Below, in pieces: positions 9,437 through 32,706 of a stretch of 32,848 nucleotides of DNA. A program made the translations under genes and the position numbers. Each line of letters begins with the position of its first letter. The first letter of the stretch is position 1. Under the pieces are notes generated by a model. That model was not told where the DNA came from. It was given only the letters and a program-made list of their open reading frames with translations, and did not search any database. The DNA lies in the sequence record NC_049390.1. The stretch is one strand, 5' to 3'. This DNA comes from Peduovirus P24A7b.

Positions 9437-10222
9437 TTATGAGTGATTTTTATTTGATGCTTTGTATTCTACAACCTTCTTATTGGCGTAAAGGAATTTT
9501 GTATATGACAGGAATATAACCAGACCTGAAATGAAATAGATGAGGGATATTATTAATAATGCTTTTTTTTGGCTGTTATTATCTTTAATTTCCTGACTTA
9601 ACCATTCCGAGTCCTCCTCGTTTAGCCGTAAGAGCTTATTGCAGGCGATCTCAGGAAGTGTGTCTTTTATAAATATGTTTCGTAGCCTCTTGCAATCGGC
9701 AAGGCTATAAGTTTTATTGAATTCAACTGTTTTATTGTTGAAGGATAAAAGAACTTTGTCACTATAAACATAGTACATCATATTTTTATATGGTATGCCT
9801 ATGGCATCTCTTACTATAGCGGATTGTTTGTTGTGTATATAACATGCGAAGAGAATATAAATAATGCTGGACAGAATTACAATTATTGTTTTAATTATGT
9901 GTGGTGGTTTTGTTATGTCACCCCAGAAGCGAGTAAGAAAAAAATACGATGTTTTTAGTTTTCCATCAATCAGCCCCTGCTGTATCATTCTCACATCTTC
10001 GATGCCTGATACATTGATTCCGTTAATTATTTTAAATAGTTGAATGTCGCGCCATTTTTTGTCGAGCATTTTTAACTTTCTGTCTGAATACTCAAAATTG
10101 AAATGATGTGCAATAAACCTCATAAGATTACTTTTACCAAAGGTAATAAATGTTAATGCTATTAATAAAAATAGATACAAAGAGATAAACCACCACGCAT
10201 TAGTCACATTATCACTGAACAT
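9437..10222 (-). CDS. Moron: hypothetical polytopic membrane protein (3 predicted TM helices), function unknown
   Basis: 261-aa ORF on the strand opposite the flanking late genes; visibly AT-rich; AGGAG Shine-Dalgarno 6 nt upstream of the ATG; hydrophobic segments near aa 9-29, 112-132 and 224-246; occupies the S-V position (orf30 in P2). Confidence 0.8.
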   Translation of the reverse strand: MFSDNVTNAWWFISLYLFLLIALTFITFGKSNLMRFIAHHFNFEYSDRKLKMLDKKWRDIQLFKIINGINVSGIEDVRMIQQGLIDGKLKTSYFFLTRFWGDITKPPHIIKTIIVILSSIIYILFACYIHNKQSAIVRDAIGIPYKNMMYYVYSDKVLLSFNNKTVEFNKTYSLADCKRLRNIFIKDTLPEIACNKLLRLNEEDSEWLSQEIKDNNSQKKALLIISLIYFISGLVIFLSYTKFLYANKKVVEYKASNKNHS

Positions 10223-10258: not shown

Positions 10259-10305
10259 ATGAATCCAGATAGCATAACTTTTATATATTGTGCAATCTCA
10301 CACGC

Positions 10306-10941
10306 ATGAACACTCTCGCAAATATTCAGGAACTCGCGCGCGCACTGCGCAACATGATTCGTACCGGCCTTGTCGTCGAAACCAACCTTAAAGCCGGTCG
10401 CTGCCGTGTGCAGACCGGTGGCATGTGCACTGACTGGCTTCAGTGGCTGACCCATCGTGCCGGACGTTCGCGCACATGGTGGGCACCTTCCGTGGGGGAA
10501 CAGGTGCTGATTCTGGCTGTGGGCGGTGAACTCGACACGGCGTTCGTTCTGCCGGGGATTTATTCCGGCGATAACCCCGCGCCGTCTGCGTCGGCGGATG
10601 CCCTGCATATCCGTTTCCCTGACGGGGCGGTGATTGAGTATGAACCCGAAACCAGTGCACTCACGGTAAGCGGAATTAAAACGGCCAGCGTGACGGCTTC
10701 TGATTCTGTTACTGCCACGGTGCCGGTGGTCATGGTGAAAGCATCAACCCGCGTCACCCTGGACACACCGGAGGTGGTTTGCACCAACAGGCTGATTACC
10801 GGCACGCTGGAAGTGCAGAAGGGCGGGACGATGCGCGGCAACATTGAACACACCGGCGGTGAACTCTCATCAAACGGTAAGGTACTGCATACCCATAAAC
10901 ACCCCGGCGACAGCGGCGGCACAACCGGGAGCCCTCTATGA
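10306..10941 (+). CDS. V: Baseplate spike/assembly protein V
   Basis: Trimmed to ATG at 10306 (MNTLANIQELARALRNMIRTGLV...), 211 aa as for P2 gpV. Confidence 0.93.
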   Translation: MNTLANIQELARALRNMIRTGLVVETNLKAGRCRVQTGGMCTDWLQWLTHRAGRSRTWWAPSVGEQVLILAVGGELDTAFVLPGIYSGDNPAPSASADALHIRFPDGAVIEYEPETSALTVSGIKTASVTASDSVTATVPVVMVKASTRVTLDTPEVVCTNRLITGTLEVQKGGTMRGNIEHTGGELSSNGKVLHTHKHPGDSGGTTGSPL

Positions 10942-12731: not shown

Positions 12732-15356
12732 ATGAGCACGAAATTTAAAACCGTTATCACTACTGCCGGAGCCGCGAAGCTGGCAGCCGCCACTGTTCCC
12801 GGCGGGAAAAAAGTAAACCTGTCTGCAATGGCTGTGGGGGACGGTAATGGCCAATTGCCGGTGCCGGATGCCGGTCAGACGAAACTGGTGCATGAAGTCT
12901 GGCGTCACGCTCTGAATAAAGTCAGCGTGGATAATAAGAATAAAAACTATATCGTGGCTGAACTGGTTGTTCCGCCCGAAGTGGGCGGCTTCTGGATGCG
13001 TGAGCTTGGTCTGTATGATGATGCCGGAACACTGATTGCGGTATCCAACATGGCAGAAAGCTATAAGCCAGAACTGGCTGAAGGCTCCGGACGTGCGCAG
13101 ACCTGCCGCATGGTTATTATTCTCAGCAACGTGGCGTCCGTTGAGCTGAGTATTGATGCCAGCACAGTGATGGCGACGCAGGATTACGTCGATGACAAAA
13201 TCGCAGAGCATGAGCAGTCCCGCCGCCATCCTGACGCCACGCTGACAGAAAAAGGTTTTACTCAGTTAAGCAGTGCAACAAACAGCACCAGTGAAAAGCT
13301 GGCGGCAACGCCAAAGGCAGTAAAAGCAGCCTATGACAATGCTGAGAAACGTCTGCAGAAAGACCAGAACGGTGGCGATATTCCAGATAAGGGCGCTTTT
13401 CTGGACAATGTTGGCGTTACCAGCCTGACGTTTATGAAACACAATGGAATGATTCCAACCACTGACAATCTTGACTCCTATGGCCCAGAAGAAAAATATC
13501 TTGGAACGTGGTCATGCCCGTCACAATCCACTGCAAAACCAGAGTCTGGTTACCCTGAAGATAAAGGCAATGGGGTTCTGGAAGTATTCAATGCTGGTCG
13601 CTTTCACTGCACACAACGCTACACCACCCGAACCGGTAATATTTACATTCGGATGCTTGATGCAGAATGGAACCCTGTCAGTCCTGTATGGAGTGCATGG
13701 AGAGTTATTACAAGCGGGACTCGCCCATTAAGCACGTCAATTGACCTGAATTCTTTAGGTGGTGCGGAACACCTGGGAATATGGCGCAATAGCAGTACAT
13801 CAATAGCCTCATTTGACCGTCATTTCCCGGAGGAAGGGAGTTTTGGGCAGGGTATTCTGGAAGTCTTTGAAGGAGGTCTGTATGGGAGGATGCAACGTTA
13901 CACCACCCGTAGTGGGACTATGTACATTCGCGGACTGACTGCCTCATGGGATGCAGAAAATCCACAATGGGAGGACTGGATTGCTGTTGGGTATCAGTCC
14001 ACGGGATGGACTTATTCAGGGGATCTTGATGACCTTTTAAAGCCTGGTATTTATAGCGTTACGAAACAGGCCACAAATGCACCTGTCACCGACTCTAAAG
14101 ATCTTGCTGTTGGCTCAATAGTTGAAGTGAAAAAACGTTGTGATATTGAATCGTATATCCAGACATACACGACTGTTTCAGCAACGGATGCCTATAAAAA
14201 CCGGACATTTCAGCGAACCCGCGCCAGCGGTGAAACTGACTGGGGGGAATGGGCGGAAGTATACAACTCAAAATCATTACTCACTAAATTAGGTGTCGGC
14301 GGTGTTACCGACAGGTTATCCAGTCTGGACTGGCAGACCTACGACTTTATACCGGGCAGCATGATAACTGTCAGGCTTTCAGATATGACCAATATTCCCG
14401 ATGGGATGGAATGGGGCGTCATTGATACTAACCTGATAAATATCACTGTTGGCCCCAGTGAAGGCGGAGGTGTCGCCCGTTCAATGCAGGTATGGCGCAG
14501 CACTTCAAACAAAACCAACTATCGTTTTTTTACAGTCCGCTTATATGGCAATCCTGGGGAGCGTAGCTTCAATATTCGTCGGCTACCAATTATCGACGAA
14601 GCCCAGACATGGGAGGCAAAACAGACATTCAGTGCAGGCCTTTCTGGTGAACTGTCCGGCAATGCGGCTACAGCAACAAAGCTGAAAACGGCAAGGACAA
14701 TTAACGGCGTAAAATTTGACGGCTCGGCAAATATTGAAGCGTTTCCGCCTGGTGTTCCGCTGCCGTGGCCATCAGATACACCACCTGCAGGATATGCAAT
14801 CATGCAGGGGCAGACGTTTGATAAGACTGCATATCCGAAACTGGCTATTGCCTATCCTTCTGGTGTTATTCCAGATATGCGCGGCTGGACAATCAAGGGC
14901 AAACCCGCCAGTGGGCGTGCCGTATTGTCACAGGAACAGGACGGGATTAAATCGCATACTCACAGTGCCAGTGCGTCAAATACGGATTTGGGAACGAAAA
15001 CAACCAGTTCGTTTGATTACGGGACGAAGACAGTCAGTACGTTTAACTACGGAACAAAAACCACTAATACCACTGGTAACCATACACATACCATTTACAG
15101 AGGGAATGCCAATACTAATGGTGAAACCGGTAAAACAGGCTTTGACAACCCATCGTTTAATGGCACATCAGGAGCTGCCGGGAATCATGCCCACACGGTA
15201 GATATTGGCGCACATAATCATACGGTTGGTATTGGTGCACATTCACACACGGTTGCTATTGGCTCACACGGGCACTCTATTACCGTTAATGCTACAGGTA
15301 ATACAGAAAACACCGTCAAAAACATCGCATTCAACTATATTGTGAGGCTTGCATAA
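12732..15356 (+). CDS. H: Tail fibre protein H (enlarged, 874 aa)
   Basis: N-terminus ([25 protein letters not shown]...) is the conserved P2 H baseplate-attachment region; centre holds 3-4 tandem about 85-aa repeats; C-terminus is a variable receptor-binding region with His-x-His repeats. Confidence 0.92.
15174..15281 (+). repeat. Tandem about 27-bp coding repeats (about 4 units) at the 3' end of H
   Basis: Units 15201-15227, 15228-15254 and 15255-15281 plus a diverged unit upstream, encoding (G/A)HxHTV(D/G/A)IGA-type motifs. Confidence 0.6.
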
Positions 15357-15934
15357 TGGCTTTCAGAATGAGTGCAGAAGCACAAACTATCCGCGTTTTC
15401 AATTTACTTGATGGAACCAATGAATTTATTGGCGAAAGTGATGCATATATTCCACCGTATACTGGCCTGCCTGCAAACAGTACAGATATTGCACCACCTG
15501 ATATTCCTGCTGGTTATGCAGCCGTTTTCAATGCAGATGAAATGAAATGGGAGTTGATGGAAGATCATCGCGGAAAGACTGTCTACGAAACGAAAACGGG
15601 AGCAGCCATTTATATTTCTGAACTTGGCGCATTACCTCCAGACGTGACAGCCATTTCCCCGGATGGGGATTATCAGAAATGGAACGGAAATGCGTGGGTG
15701 AATGATGAGAATGCAGAGCGTGATGCACTTGTCAGAGCGGCGGAGTCTCAGAAGAAAGAGCAGATTGCATATGCCGGTGAAATTATTGCCACGCTGCAGG
15801 ATGCTGTCGATTTAGATATGGCTACCGAGGAAGAAAAGTTAAGTCTGACACACTGGAAAAAATACCGTGTGCTACTGAATCGCGTTCAGCCGGAAGATGC
15901 TCCGGATATAGAATGGCCGGAAATGCCGCGATAA
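15356..15934 (+). CDS. G: Tail fibre assembly chaperone G
   Basis: 192-aa ORF directly after H with ATGG overlap; conserved tail-fibre-assembly N-terminus; the variable C-terminus co-varies with the H tip. Confidence 0.88.
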
Positions 15935-16190: not shown

Positions 16191-16598
16191 ATGGCTAAGC
16201 GGATTCCTGGTGTTAGTAAAGAATGGTCTAACTATCTCCTTTGTTTATTATTACATATGTCTTTACCTCTCTTACCTTTGGGGTTCGAGACACTTGTGCG
16301 TTCCGATCACTTGCCATCAATACAAACATTAAACATTACAGCGGCGTTTTATGCGATCTCGATAGGGCTTTCTTCTAAGAACGTTGCTATGTTTGGTTTG
16401 GGTATATTCGTGAGCATTTGTTTCTCTGTTGTATTTGGGATTGTTTCTTCAAATCCTAATTCTGATCCTAATCTTAATTTTAATGATAACTTGTATTTTT
16501 ATTCTCCAATTGCGTGTATTGTTGCTATATTTGTTATACATGCATGTGAACGATATAACAGGCATGTTGCTGATTGTACACCATTTTTTGAGTTTTAA
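16191..16598 (+). CDS. Hotspot cargo gene 1: small polytopic membrane protein (135 aa), function unknown
   Basis: AT-rich ORF at the G-FI (P2 Z/fun) position; 3-4 hydrophobic helices; Asn/Pro-rich loop NPNSDPNLNFNDN; weak Shine-Dalgarno, so the exact start is uncertain (alternative ATG at 16255). Confidence 0.65.
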   Translation: MAKRIPGVSKEWSNYLLCLLLHMSLPLLPLGFETLVRSDHLPSIQTLNITAAFYAISIGLSSKNVAMFGLGIFVSICFSVVFGIVSSNPNSDPNLNFNDNLYFYSPIACIVAIFVIHACERYNRHVADCTPFFEF

Positions 16599-16607
16599 GG
16601 GGGTGCT

Positions 16608-17099
16608 ATGATTGATACAATTATCCCAGTAATACTATCAATTCTCCCGGCAATACTATCTATATTTAGCTTAGTAGCTGTTTCTATAGGTGCATTAGTA
16701 TCTATCAGGTCTGTTAAAAAAAGACGTGAAATAGAAGTTCAGCTTTTTAATGAGATAATAAATCAACAAATTAAACAAACTAAAAGCAACCGTAAAAAGG
16801 ATCTTGAAAATAGTGTTAATGAAATAGAAAATGAACTCAAGAGAAGAGTTGATATTTTGAATAAAATGCAAAAAGATCTAGAAGCAGTTTCAGAGAACAA
16901 ATACTATTTTGATAAAGCAAAATATCTTCGAAATGTCAAGTATGGAGAGTATTTATTAGAGATAAATGAAGCTGTGAATAATATTGATAATAAAAACAAA
17001 CACTTACTAAATAACGCTCTTAATCAAAGCTCTGAGATTGGAAAAGTAAGATATCTTGGAAGAATAACAAAGGAAGCACTGGAAAAAACAGTAGGCTGA
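16608..17099 (+). CDS. Hotspot cargo gene 2: membrane-anchored charged/coiled-coil protein (163 aa), function unknown
   Basis: Strong Shine-Dalgarno (AAGGGGG) 7 nt upstream of the ATG; 9-nt gap from gene 1; N-terminal hydrophobic helix (aa 4-32) then a K/E/N-rich heptad-like region; AT-rich. Confidence 0.8.
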   Translation: MIDTIIPVILSILPAILSIFSLVAVSIGALVSIRSVKKRREIEVQLFNEIINQQIKQTKSNRKKDLENSVNEIENELKRRVDILNKMQKDLEAVSENKYYFDKAKYLRNVKYGEYLLEINEAVNNIDNKNKHLLNNALNQSSEIGKVRYLGRITKEALEKTVG

Positions 17100-30981: not shown

Positions 30982-31069
30982 AGCTAACAACTTACAAATA
31001 TTCAAAAGTAAGCTTCCTGTTGCTAACATAAGGTCGATTTTTTATGTGGATGATGCAAAAAGGATAGCT

Positions 31070-31801
31070 ATGGATACTGTAATCGCTTTTCTATCACTCG
31101 CTTTTTTCGTTGCTTTTTTCATCGGGTTAATCAAACCATCACTGGTGCGGATGCCAAACCGTAAACGTGCAAGTGCGGTTTATCTCGGAGGAGGTTTTGT
31201 ATTGAGCATAATTGGTTCAATACTCTATCCAACAGAAAAAAGCCAGCCAGTTGCTAAAACTGAAACATCAACCGTTGCAGAACACCAAGTCCAAAAAACA
31301 TTCGAATATGGTGGAAAAACACTCAAGGAATATCGGAACGAGCCAAAGAAAACTCGACACGATATTGTAAATAGTTACATTGATTTTAAGGAAGTGCCAG
31401 TCACCGCATCAGATGCATTTTATGCCTGCATGAGTGAATATACTTTTACCAAAGATGATGAGTTGAAACTCGGTGATGTTCTTGGATGGTGCTTTAATGA
31501 TTATGAAAAAGATCCGCAATCACTAAACAATAAAATCAACCTTGATACATTTCAGAGTAATTTTAGTGGTTGGGATGGTTCTTATCGACCATTGGAAAAG
31601 TTAATTAAAGAGAATATGAACGATGATTCATCTTATAAACATGTGTCAACAGTGTATCATTTAATCCTGAATAAAGACCCTCACGCCATTGTGAAAACCA
31701 CATTTCGCGGTACTAATGCCTATGGTGGTGTCGTGAAGCAAACAATAGCAGCGCGTGTTAATGTGAAAACGGGTGAAATAGTTTCGATACTAAATAATTG
31801 A
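31070..31801 (+). CDS. Hotspot cargo: two-TM membrane-anchored protein with about 190-aa soluble domain, function unknown
   Basis: Trimmed from the GTG at 31046 to the ATG at 31070 (AAGGA Shine-Dalgarno); hydrophobic helices at aa 3-22 and 36-52; AT-rich; at the A-to-cos position (tin/old in P2). Confidence 0.75.
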   Translation: MDTVIAFLSLAFFVAFFIGLIKPSLVRMPNRKRASAVYLGGGFVLSIIGSILYPTEKSQPVAKTETSTVAEHQVQKTFEYGGKTLKEYRNEPKKTRHDIVNSYIDFKEVPVTASDAFYACMSEYTFTKDDELKLGDVLGWCFNDYEKDPQSLNNKINLDTFQSNFSGWDGSYRPLEKLIKENMNDDSSYKHVSTVYHLILNKDPHAIVKTTFRGTNAYGGVVKQTIAARVNVKTGEIVSILNN

Positions 31802-32007: not shown

Positions 32008-32706
32008 ATGAAGTATTGTGGGATAGCTTTAATAATATGTCTTTGCTTGTTTATGTTCGCATTTGGTTTTGTGTTGGGTGGAGTTCAATGGGCATGGGGC
32101 GAGAGTGAAAATAATAGCAAGGTCGCATTTTGGACAATGCTAGGAGGGTGGGTGTCAGGATTGGCTACTCTCGCGGCTGTGGGGGTTTCATTATTTACAA
32201 GTTATTATGCGATGATTTCAGGCAAAGAGAAAGTTGACGTTGTTTTTGCGCCTATATATACGACCTCTACGGCAAAAAAAGCAGATAAGCTTTCATTGCA
32301 AGATTTGGCTAATATCAAAGTGACAAATTTACACGGTGTGAAGTGTACTATTGTTAATGTTTATATGAAGTTTAGTGATGTTAAGGAACCATTAAAGATT
32401 AATAACCTTAAACAGGGAGGTAAGCCAATACCTTATACGCTATGTAATATAAGCGATATGTGGGAGTTTGCATTTGGGATGGAGTCAAACCCTAGATTGA
32501 GATTTCTATTGTCAGGGTTGAAATATGAAGGTCGACCATCCTTTAAAAAAGGGCATTTCATCATTGAAACAGCAATGAAACAATACAAGTTAAAGATGCG
32601 GAAAGACTTTCTCTCAATATTACAGAGTGAGTATCAAAGCATAGAGGAAGAATCTAAACGTAACTCAGTTAAATCAGGGTGGTCACGGTATAAAAAACTG
32701 AATTAA
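32008..32706 (+). CDS. Hotspot cargo: two-TM membrane-anchored protein with about 165-aa soluble domain, function unknown
   Basis: ATG at 32008 with AAGGA Shine-Dalgarno; hydrophobic helices at aa 5-25 and 40-64; very AT-rich; last gene before the cos end. Confidence 0.75.
   Translation: MKYCGIALIICLCLFMFAFGFVLGGVQWAWGESENNSKVAFWTMLGGWVSGLATLAAVGVSLFTSYYAMISGKEKVDVVFAPIYTTSTAKKADKLSLQDLANIKVTNLHGVKCTIVNVYMKFSDVKEPLKINNLKQGGKPIPYTLCNISDMWEFAFGMESNPRLRFLLSGLKYEGRPSFKKGHFIIETAMKQYKLKMRKDFLSILQSEYQSIEEESKRNSVKSGWSRYKKLN

Follow-up and report, generated by a model that had tools for sequence, protein, structure and literature searches.

The stretch of DNA analysed here (the window; 32,848 nucleotides from Peduovirus P24A7b, NC_049390.1) was characterised around its tail fibre gene H. 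The open reading frames of the window are arranged as in P2, from Q/P to the replication gene A, and the source is apparently a complete P2-like (Peduovirus) genome. As the first-pass annotation had stated, the H reading frame occupies 12732–15356 (plus strand, beginning with ATG) and encodes 874 aa. The local gene order is J-I-H-G, with Tail_P2_I upstream of H and a TFA gene downstream. Pfam Phage_tail_fib, Phage_fiber_2 and Collar domains were detected in H, and its PHROG matches were tail fibre families; RefSeq E. coli genomes hold an identical protein labelled ‘phage tail protein’. GC content fell from 55–60% (backbone) to 47–49% (distal H) and 43% (G), and PADLOC and Pfam searches returned no assignment for the neighbouring low-GC cargo open reading frames. 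Homology, motif conservation, module boundaries and the pattern of variability were determined for H, and the following features were assigned (all on the plus strand):

12732–15356, plus strand: gene H, tail fibre, 874 aa, a very probable mosaic of three lineages (open reading frame, Pfam, PHROG, synteny)
12732–13361, plus strand: P2-type N-terminal module, aa 1–210 (PF12571, PF03406, identity to P2 gpH)
13452–14006, plus strand: two clear tandem domains, predicted knobs, aa 241–332 and 333–425 (Smith-Waterman, hhalign)
14007–14291, plus strand: third, diverged knob-like repeat, aa 426–520 (hhalign; AF2 pLDDT 56–80)
14292–14651, plus strand: conserved beta-rich domain, aa 521–640 (the ‘fourth repeat’ of the first-pass annotation)
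14652–14756, plus strand: ...FDG linker and recombination junction (alignments with L-413C, T4 gp37 and lambda Stf)
14736–14951, plus strand: collar domain (first part of T4 gp37 D10), completed by the last 17 aa at 15303–15353
14952–15089, plus strand: descending stem, with HxH motifs at aa 742–744 and 784–786 and a 30-bp ×2.3 repeat
15093–15176, plus strand: hypervariable tip loop, aa 788–815, predicted receptor-binding end (alignments)
15177–15302, plus strand: ascending stem, four HxH motifs at 9-aa spacing (aa 819, 828, 837 and 846)
15356–15934, plus strand: gene G, tail-fibre assembly chaperone of the lambda Tfa type, 192 aa (PF02413, E 8.7e-40)

The N-terminal module comprises the baseplate-attachment domain (aa 1–151; PF12571, E 2.5e-57) and a Phage_fiber_2 repeat (aa 170–210; PF03406, E 2.8e-21). 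P2 gpH aa 1–207 were 83% identical to H, and no similarity was found past aa 207 in the alignment of the two proteins.

Internal repeats were detected by windowed Smith-Waterman and profile-profile comparison in place of whole-protein self-BLAST, which returned the identity match only. Segments aa 241–332 and 333–425 aligned with a Smith-Waterman score of 161 (shuffled null 32 ± 5) and an hhalign probability of 99.8% (E 4e-29). Segment aa 426–520 matched the first repeat at E 8e-6 (probability 84%) and the second at E 3e-4, and the three are mutually related by hhalign profile comparison. Three clear repeats and a diverged fourth had been proposed for this region; two clear copies and one diverged copy stand, and the supposed fourth, aa 521–640, had no similarity to repeats 1–3 detectable by hhalign and no fold match for its low-confidence predicted model. 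A borderline alignment was seen between aa 567–647 and the N-terminal aa 29–124 (score 57, null maximum 50).

The internal repeats are predicted to be knob domains of the R-pyocin/phi11 fibre type. This assignment was made by fold comparison: a monomer model (mean pLDDT 68, a moderate confidence) resembled the knobs of the R1/R2 pyocin fibres and the structural relatives known for them. No significant Pfam or NCBIfam match was obtained for any of the four repeat segments, and searching the PDB with a profile built from homologue alignment A2 did not reach the pyocin fibres. The only matches, Mu gpS and T4 gp34, traced to P2/Mu-type C-termini carried by other family members, not to the knob region; on the sequence side, the pointers to the knob type were only the source names of homologues. 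The 425-aa middle module was present in 237 phage records. Its identity was 98.6% with gpH of Yersinia phage L-413C, about 61% with the H proteins of many Peduoviruses and about 50% with the distal fibre subunits (gp37) of T-even phages. Within it, aa 521–640, common to P2-like and T-even fibres, may possibly be an undescribed fibre domain. The first-pass annotation had called H enlarged in comparison with the 669 aa of P2 gpH; the P2 length is correct, but H is not unusual given this distribution and the lengths of gpH in L-413C (913 aa) and of the fibre in vB_EcoM-613R2 (948 aa).

Alignment of L-413C gpH with the protein spans H aa 1–675 (96% identity), the DNA identity of 96.4% with L-413C stops at nt 1958 of the H gene, and H becomes homologous to T4 gp37 and lambda Stf from aa 655–660 onward. 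H is very probably a recombinant, in a Peduovirus genome, of a P2 anchor, a T-even-type knob module and a T4/lambda-type collar and needle. The P2 N-terminus (aa 1–210) would anchor the trimer to the baseplate, aa ~230–654 would form a shaft module common to L-413C and T-even gp37 with three knobs and one beta domain, and aa 655–874 would form the T4 gp37/lambda Stf-type collar plus needle. Module swaps were also seen in close relatives, one differing only in the tip and another only in the knob region. In E. coli strain 5-1 the tip is identical and the knob region is divergent over aa ~237–620 (79% identity overall).

Domain limits of T4 gp37 were taken from PMC6957217 and applied to H. The collar was recognised by PF07484 (E 2.4e-10, 40.7 bits, cut-off 24) and was 81% identical to T4 gp37 residues 811–881 plus 1010–1026. 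The first-pass annotation had described the T4 gp37 HxH repeats as comparable and had proposed an alignment with the T4 tip as a check; by phmmer, H aa 655–874 matched residues 16–242 of 2XGF at E 3.7e-76. The likeness was correctly seen, and the relation is closer than analogy: the C-terminus of H and the T4 gp37 tip solved by crystallography are directly homologous in sequence. Global alignment of the two tips gave 61% identity, distributed by subdomain as 81% in the collar, 68% in the stem and 14% in the receptor tip. At E ≤ 1e-10 the tip module had 1447 homologues.

Six HxH motifs were counted in H, starting at aa 742, 784, 819, 828, 837 and 846, where five had been claimed; the one missed was SHTHS at aa 742. 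In 20,000 shuffles of H the mean count was 0.44 and the maximum 5, so six were reached in none. The six align with T4 sites 883, 929, 966, 980, 989 and 998, the last four of these pairing with the motifs of the ascending stem. No counterpart of the T4 site at 915–917 was present in H in the alignment, and a duplicated F-x-Y-G-T-K-T segment lies in that region; the descending stem therefore cannot copy the T4 geometry exactly. Among 115 relatives, all 12 HxH histidines were at least 99% conserved, those of the descending stem 100%. By homology to 2XGF, three chains would run down the needle, make a small tip and return upward.

Downstream, G aa 1–191 were 65% identical to lambda Tfa. Proteins at the gp38 position of T4-like phages were ~28–33% identical over 94% of the length, and the likeness to P2 gpG was confined to the last 70 residues (aa 123–192, 44%). 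TFAs combine a variable fibre-binding N-terminal domain with a conserved C-terminal domain (PMC9608196). The C-terminal part of G would correspond to this conserved TFA domain, and its N-terminal part would track the tip type. Folding and trimerisation of H are expected to need the co-inherited Tfa-type chaperone G encoded directly downstream. T4 gp37 also depends on gp57A, of which an equivalent is not expected in a P2 genome.

The tip loop was 14% identical to the T4 tip subdomain (932–959). Among the 115 relatives its mean identity was 0.11 and its column entropy 2.6 bits, with flanks above 0.9 identity, and in a 96%-identical relative (FDAARGOS_1337) the differences clustered in this loop. 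Placed at the distal pole, the hypervariable loop (aa 788–815) would bind the host receptor, and a receptor specificity distinct from that of T4 is plausible because the tip is so little like that of T4 and hypervariable among relatives. The predicted receptor-determining variation would sit in a ~28-residue loop between invariant HxH sites, for which we infer iron.

It is also conceivable, though unlikely, that the knob region is a main determinant of specificity, instead of or beside the tip, by binding surface glycans. The identical tip and exchanged knob module of strain 5-1 would fit such a role; glycan binding has already been proposed for Knob2 of R-type pyocin fibres, and in addition variability within R pyocin fibres is highest in Knob2 and the knob-like domains of K1F endosialidase bind saccharides (PMC6116203). 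However, genetic and biochemical data place the receptor contacts of T4 in the tip subdomain (PMC6957217), the sharpest variability peak in H is the tip loop, Salmonella phage STYP1 is functional with this tip type in the absence of a knob module, and no ligand site was identified in the knob region.

The T4 needle contains seven iron atoms (PMC6957217), and three chains contributing one HxH each form an octahedral Fe site (PMC6116203). By homology, each HxH in the putative H trimer would supply six histidines to one buried, octahedrally coordinated metal ion (iron in T4), giving six sites as against seven in T4; lambda Stf has eight HxH motifs. The metal-stabilised needle proposed in the first-pass annotation is in this respect better supported than before, since the region is a T4 tip homologue with six of the seven ligand HxH pairs kept and near-invariant. 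That the HxH sites are occupied by zinc or some other metal, or by no metal at all, with the motif serving only as a folding register, is decidedly unlikely: the HxH site of T4 gp12 does contain zinc in its crystal structure, possibly as a preparation artefact, but all structurally characterised native HxH sites named in the same source hold iron (T4 gp37, P2 gpV, the phi92 spike, the R1/R2 fibres and the R2 spike; PMC6116203), and the H stem is 68% identical to the iron-containing T4 stem. Iron at the six sites of H is inferred from T4.

Tandem DNA repeats of about 27 bp had been reported in this region and do exist. TRF returned a 27-bp unit ×2.9 at 15192–15268 (78% matches), and a 27-bp repeat search gave three copies at 15186–15268, 76–83% identical, which encode the ascending-stem HxH motifs. 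A second array that had escaped the first-pass annotation (30 bp ×2.3, 14994–15061) lies within the descending stem, around the position that the 915–917 HxH site occupies in T4. Exactly one 9-aa unit (IGAHNHTVG) is missing from NZ_OZ040555 through a 27-bp in-frame deletion, which lies between perfect 13-nt direct repeats (TATTGGTGCACAT) found in the nearest relatives of NZ_OZ040555; in the window the 13-nt repeat is interrupted (TATTGGCGCACAT).

Repeat number had been put forward as a route to host-range variation. The HxH array could be a tolerated length-variable element in which one-unit slippage yields functional needles with altered receptor reach or host range, and the stem would then be a second, repeat-driven layer of fibre diversification beside tip-loop replacement; we regard this as very doubtful. 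A contingency (slippage) locus, in which the number of 27-bp units sets needle length and thereby host range, is highly improbable, even though the NZ_OZ040555 deletion is a classic slippage signature and the HxH count varies by subfamily (six in H, seven in T4, eight in lambda Stf). The HxH spacing 42,N,9,9,9 was identical in 113 of the 120 closest cluster representatives, with no gain or loss of a 9-aa unit among the 120, and of the 65 E. coli genomes that the junction probe matched, a single one carried the deletion junction at full length. The units of the window are, moreover, just 76–83% identical in DNA, with the interrupted 13-nt repeat. Without one ascending unit the downward and upward strands of the needle would no longer be in register, and a one-unit deletion variant may for that reason be defective. 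The periodicity is kept at the protein level in T4 and lambda and so is structural. An invariant repeat number and a typical H length among close relatives, which the first-pass annotation had itself named as evidence against repeat variation, are largely what was observed, and the proposal of repeat-driven host-range variation is largely refuted. The fibre differences observed fall in the tip loop or come from the exchange of whole modules, not from changes in repeat number. An invertible segment of the Mu/P1 type and a diversity-generating retroelement were also considered as sources of fibre variation and dropped on the gene layout, which shows no alternative C-terminal cassette between G and FI.

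That H is decaying within a cryptic prophage and its fibre has lost its function is extremely improbable: some copies of this prophage are damaged (in AR_0081 the tape-measure gene is split by ISEc12, and in strain LS4 the same element truncates G), but H, G and the tape-measure gene are all intact open reading frames in the window with the P2 gene order kept, H is 98–100% conserved at full length in at least 13 genomes, and its functional residues are conserved.

H is a clear but ordinary case of phage fibre mosaicism. The fibre family, the metal sites, the chaperone and the mosaic evolution have already been described, and no new mechanism is revealed. What the gene offers is a display, in one reading frame, of the exact joints where P2, T-even and lambda-type fibre modules swap, at the ...FDG linker. 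This is of use, if of modest practical value, when the host range of prophages is annotated or chimeric delivery particles based on P2 or lambda are designed.

With P2 gpH, H shares the N-terminal baseplate-binding domain and the J-I-H-G gene order; the P2 protein is shorter (669 against 874 aa), has no HxH and carries a C-terminal receptor-binding region unlike that of H. In the T4 gp37 needle (PDB 2XGF, residues 785–1026) the last ~25 residues are nearly identical to those of H, and the tip insertion is similar in length (34 residues between the flanking HxH motifs, 32 in H). The T4 needle differs in having seven HxH motifs (six in H, with the duplicated FxYGTKT segment near the missing 915–917 site), an ascending stem 5 aa longer and a tip subdomain unrelated in sequence (14%). 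It sits on the gp34–gp36 fibre, whereas the H needle would sit on a P2 baseplate anchor, and T4-like gp38 is less like G (~30%) than is lambda Tfa (65%). Lambda Stf (Ur-lambda), a siphovirus side fibre with a different shaft and N-terminus, is 60% identical to H aa 660–874 over its aa 519–774 and shares the order of fibre then chaperone seen in H-G; its eight HxH motifs are spaced 42,14,48,14,9,9,9, and its needle is 41 aa longer than that of H.

The R1/R2 pyocin fibres (PDB 6CL5, 6CL6 and 6CU2) have two knobs followed by an iron-containing shaft and a lectin domain, whereas H has three predicted copies followed by the gp37 needle; at the sequence level the H knobs matched neither PDB chains nor any Pfam/NCBIfam model. 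L-413C gpH shares the whole knob module with H, but beyond the ...FDG linker it carries a P2/Mu-type C-terminal receptor-binding domain without a gp37-type needle, and it is accompanied by a P2-type gpG of 175 aa instead of the 192-aa lambda Tfa type. Its mosaicism was described earlier (Garcia et al. 2008, summarised in PMC7460101). The gp37-type tip is likewise already present in the Peduoviruses STYP1 and vB_EcoM-613R2. STYP1 H (605 aa) has an N-terminus 85% identical to that of H, a tip 74% identical with the same six-HxH spacing (42,34,9,9,9) and a G 90% identical, but has no knob module and a different tip loop. The fibre of Escherichia phage vB_EcoM-613R2 (948 aa) has the H architecture from end to end at 55% identity, with a G 60% identical, a longer needle and a different tip loop.

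The structural genes considered here are listed below.

12732..15356, + strand: H, ORF with ATG start, tail fibre of 874 aa
15356-15934, + strand: G, Tfa-type tail-fibre chaperone
10288-10941, + strand: gpV, baseplate spike (Pfam Phage_base_V, Phage_spike, Apex)

H was flanked by a Tail_P2_I gene on one side and a Caudo_TAP gene on the other (Pfam), and, with the annotated genes of a near-identical prophage as reference, the P2 cos-to-cos order was kept by the window ORFs (Q, P, O, N ... V, W, J, I, H, G, FI ... D, int, A). Named just 'phage tail protein' in RefSeq, H is well supported as a P2-family tail fibre of mosaic make-up, with six predicted iron sites in a tip of the gp37/Stf type and with a Tfa-type chaperone. 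H and G together were 100% identical in the E. coli AR_0081 prophage and one other chromosome, and ~98% identical over their full length in about a dozen further genomes, including several clinical isolates of O25:H4 type. Of 5426 complete E. coli genomes, 20 had 80% or more of H+G.

The first-pass annotation had likened the His-x-His (HxH) tip of H to that of T4 gp37. This was borne out by a sequence search of the PDB, in which aa 655-874 matched the T4 gp37 crystal tip (2XGF) with an E value of 3.7e-76, the match ending in a near-identical stretch of 24 residues; on sequence grounds, the C-terminus of H is a gp37 needle through homology, not analogy. Computed on published T4 gp37 domain limits (collar D10, 811-881 + 1010-1026; stem, 882-931 + 960-1009; tip, 932-959; PMC6957217), identity was 81% in the collar, 68% in the stem and 14% in the tip subdomain. 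The T4 needle contains seven iron atoms (PMC6957217), an octahedral site being formed by HxH from each of three chains (PMC6116203), and its seven motifs lie on a descending (883, 915, 929) and an ascending strand (966, 980, 989, 998). The array was present in H as claimed, with six motifs rather than five (starts at aa 742, 784, 819, 828, 837 and 846), a number never reached in 20,000 protein shuffles (mean 0.44). Six of the seven T4 motifs are retained; the 915-917 site is missing from H, in which a duplicated FxYGTKT sits in that region, and the ascending spacing is 9, 9, 9 instead of 14, 9, 9. Lambda Stf, of the same family (60% identical across aa 660-874), carries eight HxH compared with six in H.

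With 1447 homologues at E <= 1e-10, the tip module is very widespread. Across 115 full C-termini, all 12 HxH histidines were 99-100% conserved and the tip loop (aa 788-815) had a mean identity of 0.11, the pattern that would be expected of structural metal ligands around a receptor-binding loop. The identity and occupancy of the metal at these sites are putative, as is the trimer geometry near the absent seventh site, and receptor binding by the loop is predicted. The gpV of the window has an HxH of its own near the C-terminus (LHTHKHPG), equivalent to the known apex iron site of P2 gpV. If the H sites are filled as in T4, HxH metal sites would occur in two different trimeric virion proteins, H and gpV.

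At the DNA level, the reported 27-bp periodicity was recovered (TRF, 15192-15268, 2.9 copies, 78% matches), with three 29-nt copies at 15186-15268 (mutual identity 76-83%); the tandem repeat search gave another array with a 30-bp unit at 14994-15061, coding for 14 residues. The 27-bp repeats had been proposed as a slippage substrate for host-range variation, and H was aligned with close relatives (five sequences). Exactly one HxH unit (IGAHNHTVG) was missing from NZ_OZ040555; the 27 bp had been lost between perfect 13-nt direct repeats, both copies of which are found in its nearest relatives, so slippage happens, but rarely. The spacing 42,N,9,9,9 was kept in 113 of 120 cluster representatives, among which only N, the span over the tip, varied (33-42). 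Of the 65 genomes hit by an 81-nt probe for the deletion junction, one matched the junction from end to end. The deletion fibre may be defective, because the register of the descending and ascending strands would shift. These counts speak against host-range variation through repeat number. In FDAARGOS_1337 (96% identical to H) differences clustered in or beside the tip loop, and in strain 5-1 the tip was identical and the knob region divergent; given these differences and the rarity of slippage, host ranges in this family therefore appear to diversify as tip loops are replaced and modules exchanged, rather than through changes in repeat number.

In the knob/shaft middle of H, 'three clear and one diverged' repeats had been claimed, and fewer were found. 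Two were clear (aa 241-332 and 333-425; alignment score 161, null 32 +/- 5; hhalign E 4e-29) and a third was diverged (aa 426-520; E 8e-6 with repeat 1 and 3e-4 with repeat 2). In aa 521-640, hhalign detected no relation to repeats 1-3 (E >= 0.5), and no fold could be assigned to this segment. A weak similarity linked aa 567-647, in the fourth shaft domain (nt ~14430-14672), to aa 29-124 of the N-terminal P2 fibre domain (nt ~12816-13103); its Smith-Waterman score (57, shuffled-null maximum 50) is borderline and may be due to chance. The middle region was covered by no curated HMM in Pfam and NCBIfam scans, and its homologues are named 'pyocin knob domain-containing' by NCBI. The tandem knobs of R pyocins have structural relatives including phi11 gp45 (5EFV) and phage K gp144 (5M9F) (PMC6116203), with which those of the H knob region appear to overlap; a glycan-binding role of the H knobs is putative.

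G was 65% identical to lambda Tfa over the whole length, 90% to G of the Salmonella peduovirus STYP1 and ~28-33% to gp38-position proteins of T4-like phages, and resembled P2 gpG in the final 70 residues only. This fits the modular TFA model, with a variable N-terminal domain that binds the fibre and a conserved C-terminal domain (PMC9608196), and the chaperone moves together with the tip.

Further ORFs, and damage in sister prophages, were as follows.

9437-10222, - strand: 261-aa ORF, membrane-like segments (predicted), GC 32-40%
16191-16598, + strand: 135-aa ORF, GC 31-35%, apparently multi-pass hydrophobic, phrog_22626 match (unknown function)
16608-17099, + strand: 163-aa ORF, GC 31-35%, hydrophobic N-terminal segment then charged region
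31046-31801, + strand: 251-aa ORF, right genome end
32008-32706, + strand: 232-aa ORF, right genome end
NZ_CP027534 24938-29971 and NZ_CP024717 4125-5691: ISEc12 (IS21 family) damage in sister prophages

The 261-aa ORF lies between S and V, at the position of P2 orf30, and its GC compares with 55-60% in the flanks. In the otherwise near-identical AR_0081 prophage it is absent and V directly follows S. It had no PADLOC match and only a sub-threshold Pfam match (DUF6535), and has the look of cargo or a moron. The 135- and 163-aa ORFs, between G and FI at the Z/fun lysogenic-conversion site, received no assignment in Pfam and PADLOC searches and may form an uncharacterised cassette for superinfection exclusion or defence. 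Neither ORF at the right end, where P2 carries its tin/old cargo genes, was matched in Pfam or PADLOC, and the AR_0081 copies are labelled 'hypothetical protein'. Sister copies of the window prophage are undergoing inactivation by ISEc12: in AR_0081 the element sits within the tape-measure gene, and in strain LS4 it truncates G immediately behind H. Both genes are intact in the window.

H had been described as enlarged relative to P2 gpH, given as 669 aa. That length is correct, and the size and architecture of H are unexceptional beside Yersinia phage L-413C gpH (913 aa) and the vB_EcoM-613R2 fibre (948 aa). The P2 backbone has a GC content of 55-60%, compared with 47-49% for distal H and 43% for G, a drop that fits an import of modules. 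Over aa 230-654, the middle module was 98.6% identical to L-413C gpH, ~61% to many Peduovirus H proteins and ~50% to the T-even distal long-fibre subunit. The protein alignment with L-413C gpH spans aa 1-675 and DNA identity stops at gene nt 1958, just past a 15-residue linker motif, after which L-413C has a P2/Mu-type tip and H a gp37-type tip; that L-413C gpH is a mosaic has been published before (Garcia et al. 2008, as summarised in PMC7460101). STYP1, whose H is 605 aa long, shares the N-terminus, tip type and G of the window but lacks the knob module. The vB_EcoM-613R2 fibre has the same architecture as H end to end, at 55% identity. Fibres of this kind are already thoroughly described, and H adds one more example.
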